From an uncultured Nitrospiraceae bacterium (GTDB lineage: Bacteria; Nitrospirota; Nitrospiria; Nitrospirales; Nitrospiraceae): a stretch of 64,000 bases of DNA. The notes under the pieces are model-generated. The model was not told the DNA's origin. It saw only the letters and a list, made by a program, of their open reading frames with translations, and did no database searches. The position numbers were made by a program, and so were the translations under genes. Positions 12,749 through 21,289 of the stretch are shown here, piece after piece. Position 1 is the first letter of the stretch, and the number at the start of each line of letters is the position of its first letter. The stretch lies in NCBI GenBank assembly GCA_963730935.1, contig CAVSTP010000002.1, positions 224,001 to 288,000 of the forward strand. The letters are read 5' to 3'.

Positions 12749-13067
12749 GGGATGTTCACACAGCCAGCGTCTCCCCCGCCCAACCCCGACGAATGTGTTC
12801 ACCCGCCCAGCCCGCCGATTGCTGCGCAATCCATCGCCCGTGACGCGTCTCTCCGCGAGCGAGGCGGCAGCGAGCGAAGGGCCGAGAGGTACCTACCAAG
12901 CTTCGCTTGTACCGCTCGCTTCGATCAAATGCGAGCGGAGAGGTACTTTCCCTCCCATGAGCTTTCAATCATCGAGGGTCTGAGCGATGCGAGAACGAAG
13001 CTTGGCGAAATGCGCGTCTCGGCGCGCCAGGGTGGGCGGGTGAGATGAGAGGCTTTTTCAACATCCC
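12749..13067. repeat. MITE-like palindromic intergenic element
   Basis: Terminal IR GGGATGTT...AACATCCC, nested internal IR (CTCCCCCGCCCAACCC / GGGTGGGCGGGTGAG). Shares GTCTGAGCGAnGCGAGAACGA with 52367-52519. Confidence 0.65.
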
Positions 13068-13077
13068 TTCAGTTGCC

Positions 13078-13107
13078 TTGACAAAGCCGGAAACCGGGTG
13101 CTACCAC
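13078..13107 (+). promoter_or_regulatory. Candidate sigma-70 promoter
   Basis: TTGACA-N18-TACCAC with extended TG, upstream of the ubiE-like gene. Confidence 0.45.
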
Positions 13108-13136
13108 CCATCTCCATGCTACTCATGAGGGAATCC

Positions 13137-13895
13137 GTGACCGATCGCCCGCTACGGGAGATTCCAGCCAGCACGATTTCGACCTGGTCGGGCTCCGCGC
13201 GCGAGCAAGCGGTTCAACGCATGTTCACGGCCATCGCGGGAGTCTACGATCTCAACAACACGCTCCTGAGCTTCGGACTGCATTACCGCTGGAAGAAAAT
13301 TACCGCGGACTATGTACCTTGCGTCGTAGATGGGACCGCGCTGGACGTGGGTGCTGGGACCGCCGATCTTGCGCTGTTTGTGGAGCCTCGCATGGGTGCT
13401 CACGGACGCGTCATCGCCTCCGACCTGAATCATGCCATGCTCGTGGAAGGGTTGAAGAAGATCGGTGGAAAGGGTCTAGGCGGGAAGATCACCTGCTTGC
13501 AGGCCAATGCAGAACATCTGGGATTCGACGACAACACGTTCGACGCCGTCACCACGGGGTTCTGCATGCGCAATGTCGGAAACCTCGCGCAGGCGATCGT
13601 CGAGATTCGTCGCGTCATGAAGCCAGGGGGCACATTCGTCTGCCTCGAATTTTCCCGTCCGGTCTTCGGCTGGCTCCGCGCTCTGTACGATTGGTATTCG
13701 TTCAAGCTGCTTCCGTGGATCGGCACGAAGGTCGCGCGGGACACAACCGGGGTCTATGAATATCTTCCCGCGTCCATCCGCGCGTTTCCCGATCAGGAGC
13801 GGCTCTGCCACATCTTTCGCGACGCGGGCTTTCGCGACGTCTCGTATCGCAATCTGACCGGCGGGATCGTCGCCATTCATCGAGCCGTGAAATGA
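13137..13895 (+). CDS. ubiE: UbiE/MenG-family quinone C-methyltransferase
   Basis: VQRMFTAIAGVYDLNNTLLSFGLH, LDVGAGTAD, RVMKPGG, YEYLPASIRAFP. Start taken as GTG 13137 after GAGG; start is uncertain. Confidence 0.85.
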   Translation: MTDRPLREIPASTISTWSGSAREQAVQRMFTAIAGVYDLNNTLLSFGLHYRWKKITADYVPCVVDGTALDVGAGTADLALFVEPRMGAHGRVIASDLNHAMLVEGLKKIGGKGLGGKITCLQANAEHLGFDDNTFDAVTTGFCMRNVGNLAQAIVEIRRVMKPGGTFVCLEFSRPVFGWLRALYDWYSFKLLPWIGTKVARDTTGVYEYLPASIRAFPDQERLCHIFRDAGFRDVSYRNLTGGIVAIHRAVK

Positions 13896-15517
13896 ACTCG
13901 GTGCTCTACATCTTTCTCCCCTGCAAGAAGGTCTACCCGATCGGCATCACCTATCTCGCCGATTTCCTTCACCGTCGGAAGCCTGAGATCCGCCAGCGCA
14001 TCCTTGACCTGTCGCTATACCCCGTCTCGCAACGGAGCCGTGCCATCCGAGAGGTCACGGCCGAGTTTCAGCCGGAACTGGTCTGCTTCTCCTGGCGGGA
14101 TATTCAGATCTTCTCGCCCCACGAGGGCGACTCTTCCCTCGAGCACGCGTTCAATTTTTATTTTGCGAGCAATCCCATCAAGCGTATTGCCGCCTCCTTC
14201 GCAGGACTGAAACAGCTGTACCGGTATTACAGCCATATTTATACGATCCTGTCTTATCCCTGGTTGGTGCGAAAAGAGTTTCCCAAGGCCCAGATCATGA
14301 TCGGAGGCGGCGCCTTCACCGCCTTCGCCGATCAGCTCATCGAGAGATTGCCGGAAGGCACCATCGGCCTGCTCGGAGAGGGCGAAGATGCGATTCTGAA
14401 AGTGCTCGAGGGCCGGTCGATCGAGGACGAGCGGTACATCATCAAGGAAGGGAACCAGGTCAAGAAAGGACGGCAGGGCTCGCCGGCGTTGCTCGATGCC
14501 CTCACCGTCGACCTGCCCTACCTGACCACAATTTTTCCGCAATACCGTGAGTACGTCGAGGAATCCATCGGTGTGCAATCGAAACGAGGCTGCCCCTACG
14601 ACTGCGCGTTTTGTCTGTATCCCTATATCGAAGGGAAACGCGTCCGCTACCGCCCTGCCGAAATGGTCGTGCGGGACATCTCCCAGCATTACCATCAATG
14701 GGGGGCCCGTCGATTCTGGTTCACCGATGCACAGTTTATTACCGGCAAGGAAGCCTATCCCCAATGCACCGAGATTCTGGAGCGCATCGTCAGCGAGAAG
14801 CTGGACATCGAATGGTCCGGCTATATCCGGACCTCATTGATCACGCCTGAATTGGCCAGGTTGATGGTGCGGTCGGGCGTCGGCGATTTGGAAGTCGCGA
14901 TCACTTCCGGCTCCCAGGAGGTCCTGAACAACCTCCATATGGGCTTCAAGCTCGAGCGGCTGTATGACGGCTGCCGGTACCTCGCGGAGGCAGGGTTCAG
15001 GGGCAAAGTCATCCTGAATTATTCGCTGAACAGCCCGAAGGAAACGGAAGAAACGCTCTTGCAGAGCGTCGAGTCCTACAAGGTCGTGGCGTCTATCTTG
15101 GGCGAAGAGCGGGTCTTTCCCCTGATGTTCTTTCTCGGAATCCAACCGAATACCGACCTCGAACAGCGCTTGCTCGAAGAGGGGTACCTGTCCGCCGGCT
15201 ATAATCCTCTCATGTTGACACCGACCAGTATCCGGAAATTGCTGTATAATCCGGCCCCCCTCAACACCTTCATCGCAAAGGCCTGCTTGCGCGCCTGGGA
15301 ACGCAAGGAAGGCAGCCGAGACCCACGGAGATGGACCGGCTCACTGTCCCAAACCGCCGGCTCGCAAGATTCTTATGCCGACAAGAGCTTGAGCCGCGGC
15401 ATTGAAGGTAATTCCGGACGGGACGCGCTCCTCTCCTTGGAAGAAATCCTGCGTTCACACCGCCCACCTTCGCCATCCCCTCGGGAGCCAAAAACTCACG
15501 CCACTTCGGCTGGTTAG
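13892..15517 (+). CDS. B12-binding radical SAM protein (resembles the cyanobacterial Slr0320-type family)
   Basis: N-terminal LPC..YPIG..YLADF, CFSWRDIQIF, IGGGAF, GEGE, KRGCPYDCAFC. ATGA-coupled to ubiE. Confidence 0.8.
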   Translation: MNSVLYIFLPCKKVYPIGITYLADFLHRRKPEIRQRILDLSLYPVSQRSRAIREVTAEFQPELVCFSWRDIQIFSPHEGDSSLEHAFNFYFASNPIKRIAASFAGLKQLYRYYSHIYTILSYPWLVRKEFPKAQIMIGGGAFTAFADQLIERLPEGTIGLLGEGEDAILKVLEGRSIEDERYIIKEGNQVKKGRQGSPALLDALTVDLPYLTTIFPQYREYVEESIGVQSKRGCPYDCAFCLYPYIEGKRVRYRPAEMVVRDISQHYHQWGARRFWFTDAQFITGKEAYPQCTEILERIVSEKLDIEWSGYIRTSLITPELARLMVRSGVGDLEVAITSGSQEVLNNLHMGFKLERLYDGCRYLAEAGFRGKVILNYSLNSPKETEETLLQSVESYKVVASILGEERVFPLMFFLGIQPNTDLEQRLLEEGYLSAGYNPLMLTPTSIRKLLYNPAPLNTFIAKACLRAWERKEGSRDPRRWTGSLSQTAGSQDSYADKSLSRGIEGNSGRDALLSLEEILRSHRPPSPSPREPKTHATSAG

Positions 15518-15663: not shown

Positions 15664-17746
15664 ATGTATAAGACGATTTATATTCCGGTCGATAATTCCG
15701 ACCATTCGAACCAGGCGGTGGACACCGGTGTCCATCTGGCCAAACTCTTCGGCTCGAAGATCGTGGGGAGCCATGTGTACGCAGCCAAAATGCACGACAA
15801 ACGCTTCAAGCAGATGGAGGCGGGCCTTCCCGAGGAATACCACGACGAAAAGGAACTCGACCGGCAACGGCAGATCCACGATTCTCTGATTACCCGCGGG
15901 CTTCAGATCATCACCGACTCCTACCTCGATTACGTCGATAAAAAGTGCAATGAGGCCAACCTTCCGATTGAACGCCGCTCGCTCGAGGGGCGGAATTGGA
16001 AAGTCCTGGCGGATGACATCAATACCAACAGCTACGATTTGGTCATCATGGGCGCCCTGGGTGTGGGCGCCGTAAAAGACAGTGTGATCGGGAGCAATAC
16101 GGAACGGGTCGTTCGTCGGGTACGGAATTCGGACATGCTGATCATCAAGAACATCCAGCCGATCAACGGCGGCAAAATCGTGGTCGCGGTCGACGGCAGT
16201 CCCTACTCGTTCGGCGGCTTGATGACCGGCCTTCAACTCGGCAAGGCGTTGAATATGCCGGTCGAGGCGATTTCGGCCTTCGATCCCTATTTCCATTACG
16301 CGGCCTTCCACAGCATCTCGGGCGTCCTCAATGAAGAAGCAGGGAAGGTCTTCCGGTTCAAAGAGCAGGAAAAGCTGCACGAAGAGATCATCGACAGCGG
16401 CCTGGCCAAGATCTACCAGTCCCATCTGGACATCTCGCGCGAGATCGCTCAAGCGGAGAAGACAGACGTCAAAACCACGTTGCTGGACGGAAAAGCGTTC
16501 GAGAAGATCATTCAATATGTCCGCAAAGACGTACCGGCCCTCCTGATCGTCGGCCGCATCGGCGTCCACAGTGACGAAGACATGGACATCGGCAGTAACA
16601 CGGAAAACCTGCTCCGGAGCGCACCCTGTAACGTGCTGGTGTCCAACCGGAAGTACGTGCCGCCCATCGACACCCAGGCCGAATACACCATTGCCTGGAC
16701 GGAAGAGGCGCTTCGCCGGATGGAGAAAATTCCAGTGTTCGCCCGCGGAGTGGCCAAGACCGCGATTCACCGCTATGCGATCGAAAAAGGGCATACGATC
16801 ATCAGCAACACGGTCGTCGATGCAGCCGTCGGGCACATTCTCCCGAAAGGCGCCATGGACGCCATGCGGGCTTTGGGCGGTAGCCTCGATGCCGCGGGCA
16901 TCGATCGCGACAAAATGCAGGCGGACGACGCCGTCGCGAAGGACCTGATGGGCTCCACGCTGAGCGGCATGATGACGCAGGTCGTCGAAGAGAAGCCCAA
17001 GAACTCAGAGGCGACGCAGGCCTATCTCGACCGTATGAGCCAGAGCTACTACGTGTGCGACGGCTGCGGCTATATCGGCAAGGGGGATACACCGGTCAAG
17101 TGCCCGGTGTGCGGAGCGGAAGGCGCTCGGTTCAAACAAGTTGATAAAAGCATCTTCGAAGCGGCCGCCAAAGCGGAGGGCGAGATCGAAACGGATCTGG
17201 CCTATGACGATGTGCCCATGCAGTGGACGAAGGATGCCAAGGAGGCAATCCGCGCCGTCCCGGCCGGATTTCAACGGCGCCGCGCGAAAGCGAAGATCGA
17301 AAAGAGCGCCCGCAAGCTCGGCATGACGACGATCACGCTGGAGTATGCCGCGCCGATGATCAAGGAAGCGGCCTCCGAAGATTACCAACCGATCTTTGCC
17401 AACAAGGGGGCCGGCACTTCAGCTAGAGGCACAAGCCAAACTGGCCGGGGTTCAGGAAAACGAGACGCAGGCCCCGCAAGACGGCGGCAACGGCCATGCG
17501 GAAGCGCCACCCTACAGCTGGACGGCGGAGGCCCAAGTCAGGCTTGAGCGGGCACCAGAGGGCTTTATGCGTGACTGTACGAAGGCCCTCATCATCAAGC
17601 ACGCCGACAAGCTCGGCACGATCCACATCACGATTGAAGTAGCCAATGAGGGCATTGAGCAGGCCAAAGGGTACATGGAAGAAGCGATGAAGACGGGCAA
17701 TCTCAAGGACATGATCGCTAGCCTCACCGGCAAAGCCGCCAAATAA
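15664..17746 (+). CDS. Multidomain universal stress protein (USP-USP-PCP_red-rubredoxin-like-PCP_red-PCP_red) interrupted by a +1 frameshift near 17425
   Basis: SD GGAGG. Two USP folds (IYIPVDNS..MGALG..IGSNTE; VVAVDGS..VGRIG..IGSNTE), CDGC..CPVC, three W-T..A..R...P.F-type repeats. Removing A17425 joins the two track ORFs. Confidence 0.8.
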
Positions 17747-17749
17747 GGA

Positions 17750-19129
17750 ATGAAACCGCTACCGATCTTCAATCCGTCGCTCTCAGGAGCGCTGGGGTCC
17801 CTTCCGCAACAGCTCACGCAGTTCTTCACGCCGCGTCCGCAGAGCGAGGGTCCGTACGACGGCCGGACCGTCGACGACTTCAAGCCCTATCTCGTTGCGC
17901 TGAACCTCACCAAGCGCTGCAACTTGAAATGCGATCACTGCTATCTAGACGCGACCACCAAAGCCGCAGGCGGCGACGACGAGCTCACGACCGAAGAGTG
18001 TTTTCGCCTGATCGACCAGATCGCCGAGGTTAATAAGGGCTGTCTGCTGGTCATCACCGGCGGCGAGCCGCTGGTCCGTCCTGACATTCTCGACATTGCA
18101 CGTTATGCCGTGAAGCTCGGATTCATGGTGGTCTTCGGCACCAACGGCATGTTGATCGATGACCGGATGGCCAAACAGCTGGTCGAGATCGGCGTCATGG
18201 GCGTCGGGATCAGCATCGATTCTCTCGACCCGCAGAAGCACAATGCCTTCCGCGGTGTCCCGGGAGCCTGGGAAGCGGCCGTGGCGGGTATCGAAGCGAG
18301 CAAACGCAACGGACTCCAGTTCCAGGTGCATTTCAGCGCGCAGCCTATGAATTACCAGGAGCTGCCGGCCGTCGTGGAATGGGCCCATGGGCTCGGCGCC
18401 CGCGTCCTGAACGTGTTCTTCATGGTGTGCACGGGTCGCGGCGAGGAACTCACGGACATCACGCCGGCCCAGTACGAAGAAGTCCTCGGCTTCTTGGTGA
18501 AGTGCCAGGACAACTATCAAGGCATGCTGATTCGGGCCCGCTGCGCTCCGCACTTCAAGCGGCTGGCCTATGAAAAAGACCCCAACTCACCGATCACCAA
18601 AGCAACCGGCTACATGGGCGGCGGCTGCCTCGCCGGAACGAACTATGCCCGCGTGACGCCGAACGGCGAATTGACGCCTTGCCCCTACATGCCGCTTTCG
18701 GCCGGGAATGTTCGCGAGAAAAGCTTTGTGGACCTCTGGGAAAAGTCCGACATCTTCAATTCCTTTCGTTACCCTCAACTCAAAGGCAAATGCGGCGACT
18801 GTGAATACTCGGAGATCTGCGGGGGCTGCCGCGCCCGTCCGTATGTGGATCATGGCGACTGGCTGGACGAAGACCAGTGGTGCCTCTACACGCCCAAGGG
18901 CGGGGAGAAGATCAAGGTCGCGTTCAATGTCGAGGAAGCGTCCGTCGTGCAGTGGGACGACGCCGCGTCGTTACGGTTGAGCCGTATTCCCTACTTTCTC
19001 CGCGCAATGGTCAAGAAAGGGGTGGAGAAACACGCGCGGGAGAACGGCATCACGACCGTGACGATCGAGCTTATGGAAGAACTCCGGAAGAAACGCTTCG
19101 GCAACGACGCACCGGTATTCAAGTTCTGA
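17750..19129 (+). CDS. Radical SAM/SPASM enzyme (AhbC/AhbD/NirJ-like) with C-terminal PCP_red domain
   Basis: CNLKCDHC, TGGEP, RCAPH, GCLAG..PCPY..KGKCGDCEYSEICGGCRAR, tail WDDAASLRLSRIPYFLRAMVKKGVEKHA. Confidence 0.85.
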   Translation: MKPLPIFNPSLSGALGSLPQQLTQFFTPRPQSEGPYDGRTVDDFKPYLVALNLTKRCNLKCDHCYLDATTKAAGGDDELTTEECFRLIDQIAEVNKGCLLVITGGEPLVRPDILDIARYAVKLGFMVVFGTNGMLIDDRMAKQLVEIGVMGVGISIDSLDPQKHNAFRGVPGAWEAAVAGIEASKRNGLQFQVHFSAQPMNYQELPAVVEWAHGLGARVLNVFFMVCTGRGEELTDITPAQYEEVLGFLVKCQDNYQGMLIRARCAPHFKRLAYEKDPNSPITKATGYMGGGCLAGTNYARVTPNGELTPCPYMPLSAGNVREKSFVDLWEKSDIFNSFRYPQLKGKCGDCEYSEICGGCRARPYVDHGDWLDEDQWCLYTPKGGEKIKVAFNVEEASVVQWDDAASLRLSRIPYFLRAMVKKGVEKHARENGITTVTIELMEELRKKRFGNDAPVFKF

Positions 19130-19152
19130 GGCTCGAGGTCTGAGCTCCGCTG

Positions 19153-19662
19153 ATGGACGCACTTCAAAGCATCATCACCGACCTCAATACGCTGATTCCC
19201 ATCGTCAATCACTGGTTCCATCTCCTCTCCGCGGTGATCTGGATCGGCGGCCTGGCCTTTCTGGTCATGGCGGTCACGCCAGGCCTGCAGAAAGCGGTTG
19301 CCCGGGAACAGATCAAGCCGATTACGGACGTCTTTTATCAACACTACAAGAAAGTGGCGGGCATTTTGCTCGTCATTCTGTTGTTTACCGGCGGAATCAA
19401 TCTCCACTACGTCAACCAGGTGCTGACCTCACAGACCGGTTCAGGCGTCCAGCACCACGCCAAATACCTCACGGTCTTTTTTATCAAGCTCTTCCTCGTA
19501 CTCTGCCTCGTGACCCTTTTCCTGTATACGGTGATTTTCAAAGCCGATGACGAGGCTGAAGAAGGCGAATCCTACGAGGTGATCCCGTTCCAACGTGCAG
19601 CGCTCTGGATGGGGTTTTTCATTATCCTGTGTGCGGCTGCCATGAAGCACTTACATCAATAG
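19153..19662 (+). CDS. CopD/DUF4149-like 4-TM membrane protein
   Basis: HWFHLLSAVIWIGG motif, LLFTGG, four hydrophobic segments. Confidence 0.7.
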   Translation: MDALQSIITDLNTLIPIVNHWFHLLSAVIWIGGLAFLVMAVTPGLQKAVAREQIKPITDVFYQHYKKVAGILLVILLFTGGINLHYVNQVLTSQTGSGVQHHAKYLTVFFIKLFLVLCLVTLFLYTVIFKADDEAEEGESYEVIPFQRAALWMGFFIILCAAAMKHLHQ

Positions 19663-20524: not shown

Positions 20525-21289
20525 TCAGCGGGGGTTGGGAGGAGTGGAGAATGCCCGTTTGAAGACACCGCGAATGCCGAAATAGGCGAAGGAGTCTTTG
20601 AGGTTGGAATACAATCGCTTGATGGAACCCATCTCGGGATTGGTCACGTACTCCATCGTCAATGCGATCCGCTCCTCTCCCTGTCCCAGCGGCGTCACTG
20701 CGTGCCACAGTTTGTCGCCGTTGAAGATCACCATGTCGCCGGGCTCCGTGACTAATTCCAACGTTCGTGGCGTCTTACCGGGAACATCCTTGAACAGCTC
20801 GCAGACCAGCTTGCACTGCGTCGATCTGTCGACCAATCCCATCAGAATCGTATAGCGGGCCCCTTTGTAATAGCTGGTGTCGTAGTGAAATCCGATATGA
20901 TCACCGGCCTCCGTGTAATAGTACAGGGCGCACGAGTGAGGATCGTTGTCCGGACAGAGCATGAGCTTGGCGTCGGTGAGCCGGCTGAGAAACGCCAAAA
21001 ACGCCGGTGAGCGATACAGATCAAGAAAGAGCGGGGCCTGTTCCTGCACCGTGTAGTAGCTCACGCTTCCGCCCTTCTTGTGGCCAGGAATGTAATTGCG
21101 ATTCAGCTGGTGTTTGACTCCCTGAGCCTGAGGCACGAGCGTCGCCTCGACGAACTCCCGCGGGAGAAACTGGGGGATGACGATGAACTCGTTCTGTTCC
21201 CAATAGTCGCGACGTACTCGATCAACGTTCAATCTGGCAATAGCCTGTTCGGTCGCTTCTGCGACTGAGCCCAAGACTGCTGTACTCAT
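20525..21289 (-). CDS. 2OG-Fe(II) oxygenase
   Basis: Facial triad HYD...HAV and 2OG-binding R in ERIALT. Confidence 0.8.
   Translation of the reverse strand: MSTAVLGSVAEATEQAIARLNVDRVRRDYWEQNEFIVIPQFLPREFVEATLVPQAQGVKHQLNRNYIPGHKKGGSVSYYTVQEQAPLFLDLYRSPAFLAFLSRLTDAKLMLCPDNDPHSCALYYYTEAGDHIGFHYDTSYYKGARYTILMGLVDRSTQCKLVCELFKDVPGKTPRTLELVTEPGDMVIFNGDKLWHAVTPLGQGEERIALTMEYVTNPEMGSIKRLYSNLKDSFAYFGIRGVFKRAFSTPPNPR

Follow-up and report, generated by a model that had tools for sequence, protein, structure and literature searches.

Most Nitrospira lineages lack a canonical haem-copper oxidase, and the "bd-like" proteins of the OR-N family have been proposed as their terminal oxidase and as the partner of NXR. 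Haem-copper oxidases themselves are served by haem a/o and CtaM (DUF420) assembly genes, and DUF420 is also encoded in several of the cassettes described below. The OR-N "cytochrome bd-like" CydA family was defined by Murali et al. (10.1101/2021.01.16.426971); its oxygen affinity is stated as unknown (PMC12342949), and we found no purified OR-N in the literature searched. In the haem d1 pathway, NirJ removes propionates by radical SAM chemistry (PMC7242693). Here, we analyzed a 64,000-nucleotide stretch from an uncultured Nitrospiraceae bacterium (GCA_963730935.1, contig CAVSTP010000002.1, positions 224,001 to 288,000), which we call the window, and in it three linked genes encoding a tandem-USP protein (gene 1), a radical SAM/SPASM enzyme (gene 2), and a small membrane protein (gene 3). 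These genes of a nitrite-oxidising Nitrospira are part of an undescribed gene set that is nearly confined to carriers of OR-N, and its most likely role is to produce a haem cofactor, perhaps of a new kind, and supply it to OR-N. No description of this module was found in the open-access papers, with bioRxiv supplements, including those of the OR-N preprint, outside the search. A sequence-only reading of the locus had proposed a cofactor-maturation or redox-stress system; cofactor maturation is the best reading of the evidence below, and the redox-stress part was not supported.

Gene 1 (15664..17746), gene 2 (17750..19129), and gene 3 (19153..19662), which lie on the forward (+) strand with all of the features given for them, encode about 693, 459, and 169 amino acids (aa), respectively, the first when an extra base at 17423..17423 (+) is discounted. 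As written in the window, gene 1 starts at the ATG at 15664 and ends after 627 aa at 17547, with the remainder in a separate frame (17396-17746), so that the third PCP_red repeat (17519..17644) is out of frame and split off the USP gene. The extra base is absent from a 96.6% identical locus (L098) and from the contigs of all four public sequencing runs, one of which is otherwise identical over 528 bases. Relatives of gene 1 are single frames of 688 to 703 aa (29/29), and 74 of the 76 loci with a stop codon encode 678 to 712 aa. Because the base is missing from L098 and all four runs and the relatives read through, the split is an assembly error and the three-repeat protein, as the sequence-only reading had counted it, is the true one; a programmed frameshift or a strain pseudogene was rejected on the same grounds. 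Where enough DNA was available, the radical SAM gene came after the USP gene in 72/72 loci and gene 3 came next in 71/71, so the tight linkage reported from the window alone is not due to chance. The scan of genome contigs for relatives covered the best 80 of 592 matches, nearly all from Nitrospirales.

The USP family was called in 301 genomes at an E value of 1e-21 or better, with the next genome at 1e-10. It was present in 84/84 genomes of the window's class and in 33 of 217 others, and OR-N was present in 83/84 and 30/217, respectively. All 30 of the latter are among the 33 USP genomes; that is, outside the window's class every OR-N genome (30/30) holds the USP family. Family f17 has neither (0/28). 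In a second phylum (that of G301; 400 genomes), we found the USP family in 15 genomes, OR-N in 12, and both in 11; the USP copy of G511 and two of the three in G447 are degenerate fusions. The genes thus co-occur in other Nitrospirota and in a second phylum, in line with the sequence-only reading, and the association holds when they are unlinked, as in the one-contig genome G106, where they lie 515 kb apart. Elsewhere in Nitrospirota, operons that encode a CydA-like protein together with c-type cytochromes and an NxrC-like domain end with the USP and enzyme genes, and these operons adjoin NXR/Nar-like or NosZ genes. Their CydA-like proteins match the OR-N family of Murali et al., subfamilies undistinguished. 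Among 44 metagenome USP loci, 20 are at least 8 kb long, and of these 13 have a CydA-like gene, 8 have the enzyme gene, and 4 have neither. The best reading is that the OR-N cytochrome bd-like complexes are the client of the module, because co-occurrence is strict and the USP and enzyme genes frequently cluster with OR-N CydA. On the other hand, the trio itself is not what is conserved: gene 3 was found in no class but that of the window, and some loci have no radical SAM gene.

Gene 2 carries Radical_SAM and SPASM domains and a PCP_red tail (residues 402-446; 18953..19087; 56.3 bits). Its CX3CX2C cysteines lie at residues 57/61/64 and the eight SPASM cysteines at 265, 293, 311, 348, 351, 357, 360, and 378, which agree in full with the CX3CX2C and SPASM motif (CX20-33CX17CX36-37CX2CX5CX2CX17-35C) given for Methanosarcina barkeri AhbD (PMC10452713), and the CAP motif is shared with AhbD as well. 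By hidden Markov model score, it is closest to NirJ2 (TIGR04055, 324 bits) and AhbD (TIGR04545, 314.6 bits), well below the cut-off of 500 for both, and further from NirJ (174, cut-off 515), AhbC (171, cut-off 650), mycofactocin maturase (130), and PqqE (111). The proposed likeness to tetrapyrrole-modifying enzymes therefore holds, narrowed to AhbD/NirJ2. However, gene 2 is not an ordinary AhbD. Outside the window's class, we searched 80 of the 217 genomes, comprising all 33 with the USP family and 47 without it. The USP-linked form (at least 425 bits) was whole in 30 of the 33, cut short in 2, and missing in 1 draft of 70%, and it was found in none of the 47. A separate AhbD-type copy (313 to 357 bits) was present in 21 of the 33. 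The AhbD-type copies of Nitrospirota are 34 to 39% identical to the gene 2 family and score 398 to 528 bits on TIGR04545 (5 scanned, two above the cut-off). In a quick tree of 59 rows, built without a characterised AhbD sequence, the 12 AhbD-type rows group apart in one clade (SH-aLRT 95, branch 0.75); a single origin of the 45 USP-linked rows has a support of 34. Differences such as N52/E, Y65/R, C227/P, and R264/T are fixed between the two groups. Gene 2 is thus an AhbD/NirJ2 relative and a separate paralogue of AhbD. The AhbD-type copies often lie within ahbD-hemE-hemH-hemY operons, which at L258, L262, and L263 amount, in Gram-negative bacteria, to a hybrid coproporphyrin route with AhbD as its last step.

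These scores bear on two other explanations for the module. It may serve the same client with ordinary haem b as its product, gene 2 being a dedicated AhbD-type coprohaem decarboxylase that channels haem from a USP carrier into OR-N. We regard this as somewhat unlikely, even though NirJ2 and AhbD are the best family scores, the SPASM cysteines and CAP motif are common to AhbD, a cassette HemY together with AhbD chemistry would amount to a known hybrid route (PMC13564367), and an archaeal CydAA' works with b-type haems only (10.1101/2021.01.16.426971), since the enzyme differs from the AhbD clade at many fixed positions and most hosts examined have genes for another route to haem b, many of them oxygen independent (AhbD in 21/33, HemN in 19/60). 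It is considerably less probable that the module matures OR-N or its partners in some other way, either with the SPASM enzyme modifying a protein (a cross-link or covalent haem attachment) or with the USP histidines carrying a metal such as copper. Most of the solved structures related to gene 2 in sequence are of enzymes that mature peptides or proteins (PqqE, SkfB, and anSME), one Nitrospira OR-N has predicted copper ligands (PMC6606698), NosZ, clade III NosZ, and a multicopper oxidase are among the proteins encoded near the cassettes, and gene 3 is CopD-like. Gene 2 is nevertheless far nearer to AhbD/NirJ2 (315 to 324 bits) than to PqqE or mycofactocin maturase, and the HemY pattern described next tracks the host's tetrapyrrole route.

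We grouped 60 genomes that carry the module or OR-N according to their haem route, leaving out of the groups G283, in which no ChdC and one HemY beside hemH were found. The window genome, which is 99.9% complete, has hemE-hemH-hemY and a ChdC-like gene (a label drawn from its PF06778 match, 200 bits), and no HemN, HemF, HemJ, or AhbAB/NirDLGH (PF17805) was found in it. Among the 19 HemN hosts, 17 carry a HemY-like gene next to those for the USP, the enzyme, or OR-N; in G536 no HemY-like gene was found, and the position of HemY in G614 was not examined. Family f4 (G108, G171, and G231, with HemF in G108) shows the same pattern. This cassette HemY appears to be surplus to haem b synthesis in HemN hosts, because 7 of the 17 (G017, G058, G335, G351, G367, G383, and G411) have another HemY in the housekeeping operon or elsewhere, and 8 of the 19 also hold HemJ. 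All 30 hosts with ChdC (17) or AhbD (13), by comparison, have one HemY, none of them beside the module. Seven genomes have no HemY and no HemH, and all seven hold AhbAB, the sirohaem route, which yields coprohaem directly (PMC13564367). The simplest reading is that coproporphyrin III or coprohaem is the feedstock of the module, which carries an oxidase of its own where the host does not produce that feedstock, since the cassette HemY is added only in protoporphyrin-route hosts (17/19, versus 0/30 with ChdC or AhbD). The enzyme was also considered as the sole haem synthase of AhbAB hosts, and this was rejected: G006, G016, G007, and G124 hold another AhbD-like gene and G011 a partial one. In family f2 (G088, G096, G112, G120, G128, G148, G159, G186, G249, and G275; see also L345 and L346), hemE-hemY and a ChdC-like gene are present and HemH was found in none of the ten. 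All ten hold a small CbiX-type protein, a candidate coproporphyrin ferrochelatase, so the USP protein is not forced as the only possible chelatase there.

The N-terminal half of gene 1 (15664..16653) consists of two USP domains, matched twice by Pfam Usp (PF00582; 113.8 bits, cut-off 24) and predicted with a tandem-USP fold (predicted local distance difference test score of 86). The model superposes on 3cis with a Z score of 27.9 and a root mean square deviation of 3.4 over 276 aligned residues. Each domain has the glycine motif G-2x-G-9x-G-(S/T) (G130/G133/G143 and G297/G300/G310), 93 to 100% conserved in 233 sequences, and is predicted to bind ATP. The model has two long helical segments, residues 41-97 (15784..15954) and 210-264 (16291..16455); the first contains H44 and H72, as well as E52 and R69, and the second contains H211 and H239, the internal-repeat equivalents of H44 and H72. 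These four histidines and H37 are 99% conserved in the 233 family members and may form a haem or metal site. Behind the USP domains lie PCP_red repeat 1 (residues 345-388; 16696..16827), a rubrerythrin-type rubredoxin CxxC..CxxC knuckle (residues 463-491; 17050..17136; PF21349 26.7 bits, cut-off 26.5), PCP_red repeat 2 (17224..17355), and PCP_red repeat 3. Profile searches of the window's proteins found all of the domains named in the sequence-only reading where it had placed them. Its PCP_red assignment also stands, with three of the four repeats of the trio above the PF08369 cut-off of 32.5 bits (repeats 1 and 2 of gene 1 reach 83.1 bits together) and repeat 3 of gene 1 below it at about 28 bits (28.1 to 28.6). 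The core of the USP protein is 81 to 95% identical across the whole order. A search of the ESM Atlas with this protein returned only generic USP clusters.

We scanned the domains of 73 of the 150 best USP matches and found PCP_red on 66 and rubredoxin on 6. The rubredoxin is thus optional in the family, which weakens the idea that an electron-carrying rubredoxin belongs to the architecture. The same domains invite the view that the module responds to redox or oxygen stress, with USP and rubredoxin as sensors that regulate the enzyme, and several UspA proteins, perhaps including the gene 1 orthologue, are upregulated at low oxygen in N. marina (PMC8115632). We consider such a role very improbable given the scarcity of the rubredoxin, the presence of the module in anaerobic lineages, its tie to OR-N, and the high and flat transcription of the N. 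moscoviensis orthologue over three steady-state time points. Two variants of the USP family stood apart. L322, L323, and L325 carry degenerate copies fused to an N-terminal hemerythrin-like domain, two of them also with a PilZ-like C-terminal part (both by eye), and their conserved histidines are mostly lost. A short USP type at L147, L148, L151, L155, L156, L168, and L174 has single or paired CydA-like genes as neighbours, accompanied by an ABC transporter or a split-barrel gene, and no radical SAM gene.

Gene 3 has about four hydrophobic segments, and H23 and K112 are invariant in 77 sequences. It scores 22.4 bits on DUF4149 and 18.9 on CopD (PF05425; cut-off 32.1), both below cut-off, and 34.7 on NF033808 (cut-off 195). 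No copC-like gene was seen among its neighbours in the window, so that neither the score nor the copC context places it in CopD. It was also considered as HemJ (PF03653) or as a stand-in for the cassette HemY. Both were rejected: the HemJ profile gave an hhalign probability of 1.2%, with 1 of 14 members at an E value of 0.13, and G108 and G269 encode gene 3 as well as the cassette HemY.

The module is larger than the trio and includes Mrp/ApbC, two or three more PCP_red proteins, the HemY-like oxidase, and a split-barrel protein. The window genome has 12 PCP_red matches in five genes, namely, genes 1 and 2 and those for a zinc-finger-like protein that follows Mrp/ApbC, a protein with four repeats, and a small protein next to a bd-like cluster. 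In G269, the trio adjoins the four-repeat gene, a haem-oxygenase-like gene, an Mrp pair, and a DUF420 gene, and in G041 and G058 the four-repeat protein is fused to the radical SAM enzyme. The window genome lacks the split-barrel protein, which is adjacent or fused in other lineages; by fold it resembles split barrels that bind haem, FMN, or F420 to a similar degree (E values of 9e-5 to 2e-3). At L032 (G000, C2:382959-384660), Mrp/ApbC and the PCP_red zinc-finger-like gene end a sulfate-assimilation operon whose genes were named by eye as Rrf2, sulfite reductase, cysH, cysD, and cysN.

Taken together, we consider it likely that the module provides a tetrapyrrole to OR-N, whether this is ordinary haem b or another haem. 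The fuller account that we prefer, at somewhat less than an even chance, is that the trio is the core of a cofactor-maturation module in which coprohaem on the USP protein is tailored to a haem other than b and loaded into OR-N. In the proposed pathway, the host, or the added HemY-like enzyme with a chelatase, would supply iron-coproporphyrin III, which the tandem-USP protein would bind through the four conserved histidines, two in each helical segment, possibly using ATP binding to hold and release it. The radical SAM enzyme would then attack the propionate side chains by AhbD/NirJ-type chemistry to give a haem other than plain haem b. Mrp/ApbC and its PCP_red partner would build the 4Fe-4S clusters of the enzyme, with the PCP_red repeats as interaction modules, and the small membrane protein (gene 3 here, DUF420 elsewhere) may help to load the haem into OR-N. 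That OR-N carries a so far unknown haem derived from coprohaem, with the USP protein as an ATP-dependent haem chaperone and perhaps a coproporphyrin chelatase, is a more tentative and, on balance, somewhat unlikely proposal.

Several observations weigh against the tailoring of coprohaem for OR-N. To our knowledge, no haem of any OR-N enzyme is known. Kinship inflates the co-occurrence counts, as does the joint transfer of a single island, and some of the genomes counted had also contributed to the building of profiles A2 and A5. Three Nitrospirota genomes, all drafts of 120 to 470 contigs, and four of the second phylum have the USP family without OR-N, and G599 has OR-N without it. Some cassettes adjoin clade III NosZ and have no OR-N within the locus (L180), and 8 of the 20 long metagenome loci have USP and CydA-like genes with no radical SAM gene nearby, within the loci themselves. 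Because of these eight loci, and because some USPs without PCP_red (L048-L051) stand beside radical SAM enzymes that have one, docking of the enzyme on the USP protein through PCP_red cannot be general. As to the feedstock, the substrate proposed for the cassette HemYs comes from their distribution alone; they form a clade of their own (21 rows, SH-aLRT 98, with the G335 copy outside) and do not join the coproporphyrin-route HemYs, and the protoporphyrin-route hosts have no obvious coproporphyrin chelatase, with CbiX also absent from G017, G374, and G526. As a separate observation, a beta-propeller gene and a cytochrome c lie directly before the USP, enzyme, or HemY-like genes at L180:5957-14304, L313:7379-15349, L314, L327, L340, L341, and L349; that of L180 is a clade III NosZ above the cut-off (770 bits), and the others were assigned by likeness only.

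Upstream of the trio and outside the module, the window encodes the methyl-plastoquinone (mPQ) methyltransferase mpqE (13098..13895, +; 399.9 bits, cut-off 335) and a B12-binding radical SAM protein related to Slr0320 (13892..15517, +; 451 bits, cut-off 775), adjacent in 54/66 and 58/72 loci, respectively. A B12-binding radical SAM gene of this kind is included in the mpq cluster given for Leptospirillum by Elling et al. (PMC11874023), and it is a candidate methyltransferase of mPQ synthesis in lineages lacking mpqQ. This adjacency and a C1 hydroxylase described as unresolved (PMC11874023) might suggest that the trio supplies a missing step of mPQ synthesis, a ring hydroxylation or decarboxylation. 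We consider this the least probable explanation, with hardly any weight: the adjacency is lost in L133-L145, in the second phylum, and in the other loci compared apart from L056 and L057, and mPQ has been reported from aerobic Nitrospirota alone (PMC11874023), well beyond which the module extends. Stress and quinone roles are thus both unlikely. In the same region, positions ~12950-13050 between uvrA and mpqE had high read depth and many loose ends in all four runs, probably due to a repeated element, and downstream of the trio positions 20525-21289 (-) encode a 2-oxoglutarate/Fe(II) oxygenase with a HalD match of 38.6 bits (above the Pfam cut-off) and a weak BesD match.

Transcript data were available for N. 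moscoviensis, in which the bd-like clusters are among the most transcribed genes (PMC6606698). Its NITMOv2_0498, 0497, and 0496 were matched to the trio by order and length, and in rows of supplementary Table 1 of that study their means are 912, 319, and 136, versus 181 for the upstream gene, with 152, 748, and 1760 in a column that we read as rank (PMC6606698). No significant change over time is listed there for NITMOv2_0498 at steady state. The pattern is that expected of a housekeeping gene under a promoter of its own. RNA contigs of run X15 span all of the window's genes concerned and are uninformative on transcript structure or level.

If OR-N needs the module, the genes to co-express for a first active OR-N enzyme are named, a haem detectable by liquid chromatography-mass spectrometry is predicted in existing cultures, and both a USP-fold protein and PCP_red gain a defined job outside stress response and photosynthesis. 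Compared with known systems, gene 1 shares the fold and the ATP-binding glycine motif of both domains with the tandem USPs Rv2623 (3cis) and TTHA0350 (3ab7/3ab8), but it is only 16 to 19% identical to them and has longer helical segments, four invariant histidines, and PCP_red and rubredoxin tails, and its order-wide conservation is unlike that of a loose stress protein. With AhbD (TIGR04545) and NirJ2 (TIGR04055), gene 2 shares the eight-cysteine SPASM, the CAP motif, and a probable coprohaem substrate; it differs in falling below their cut-offs and outside the AhbD clade of the same genomes, in its PCP_red tail, and in its pairing with a USP protein rather than with ahbABC or hemEHY. Gene 3 resembles HemJ/PgdH2 and CopD as a small membrane protein whose N-terminal helix reads H-x6-W-x-[AG]-G, but the HemJ profile does not match it, and since it coexists with the cassette HemY in two genomes it is not simply a substitute. 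With BchB/ChlB of dark protochlorophyllide reductase (DPOR), only the 45-residue PCP_red domain is common, matched above or near its cut-off; here it occurs in 12 copies in a non-phototroph, none of them on a nitrogenase-like subunit. Parallels are the haem d1 module of cd1 nitrite reductase (NirJ and NirN) and the haem a/o and CtaM genes of haem-copper oxidases, each likewise a dedicated tetrapyrrole-tailoring or assembly cassette that travels with one respiratory enzyme, with the differences that the client here is OR-N, the NirJ score is 174 of the required 515, NirDLGH is absent from the window genome, and the partner has a USP fold. Although by the tests run it is no member of AhbD, NirJ2, NirJ, AhbC, HemJ, or CopD, the module thus appears to work like the cassettes that tailor a haem for a single respiratory enzyme.

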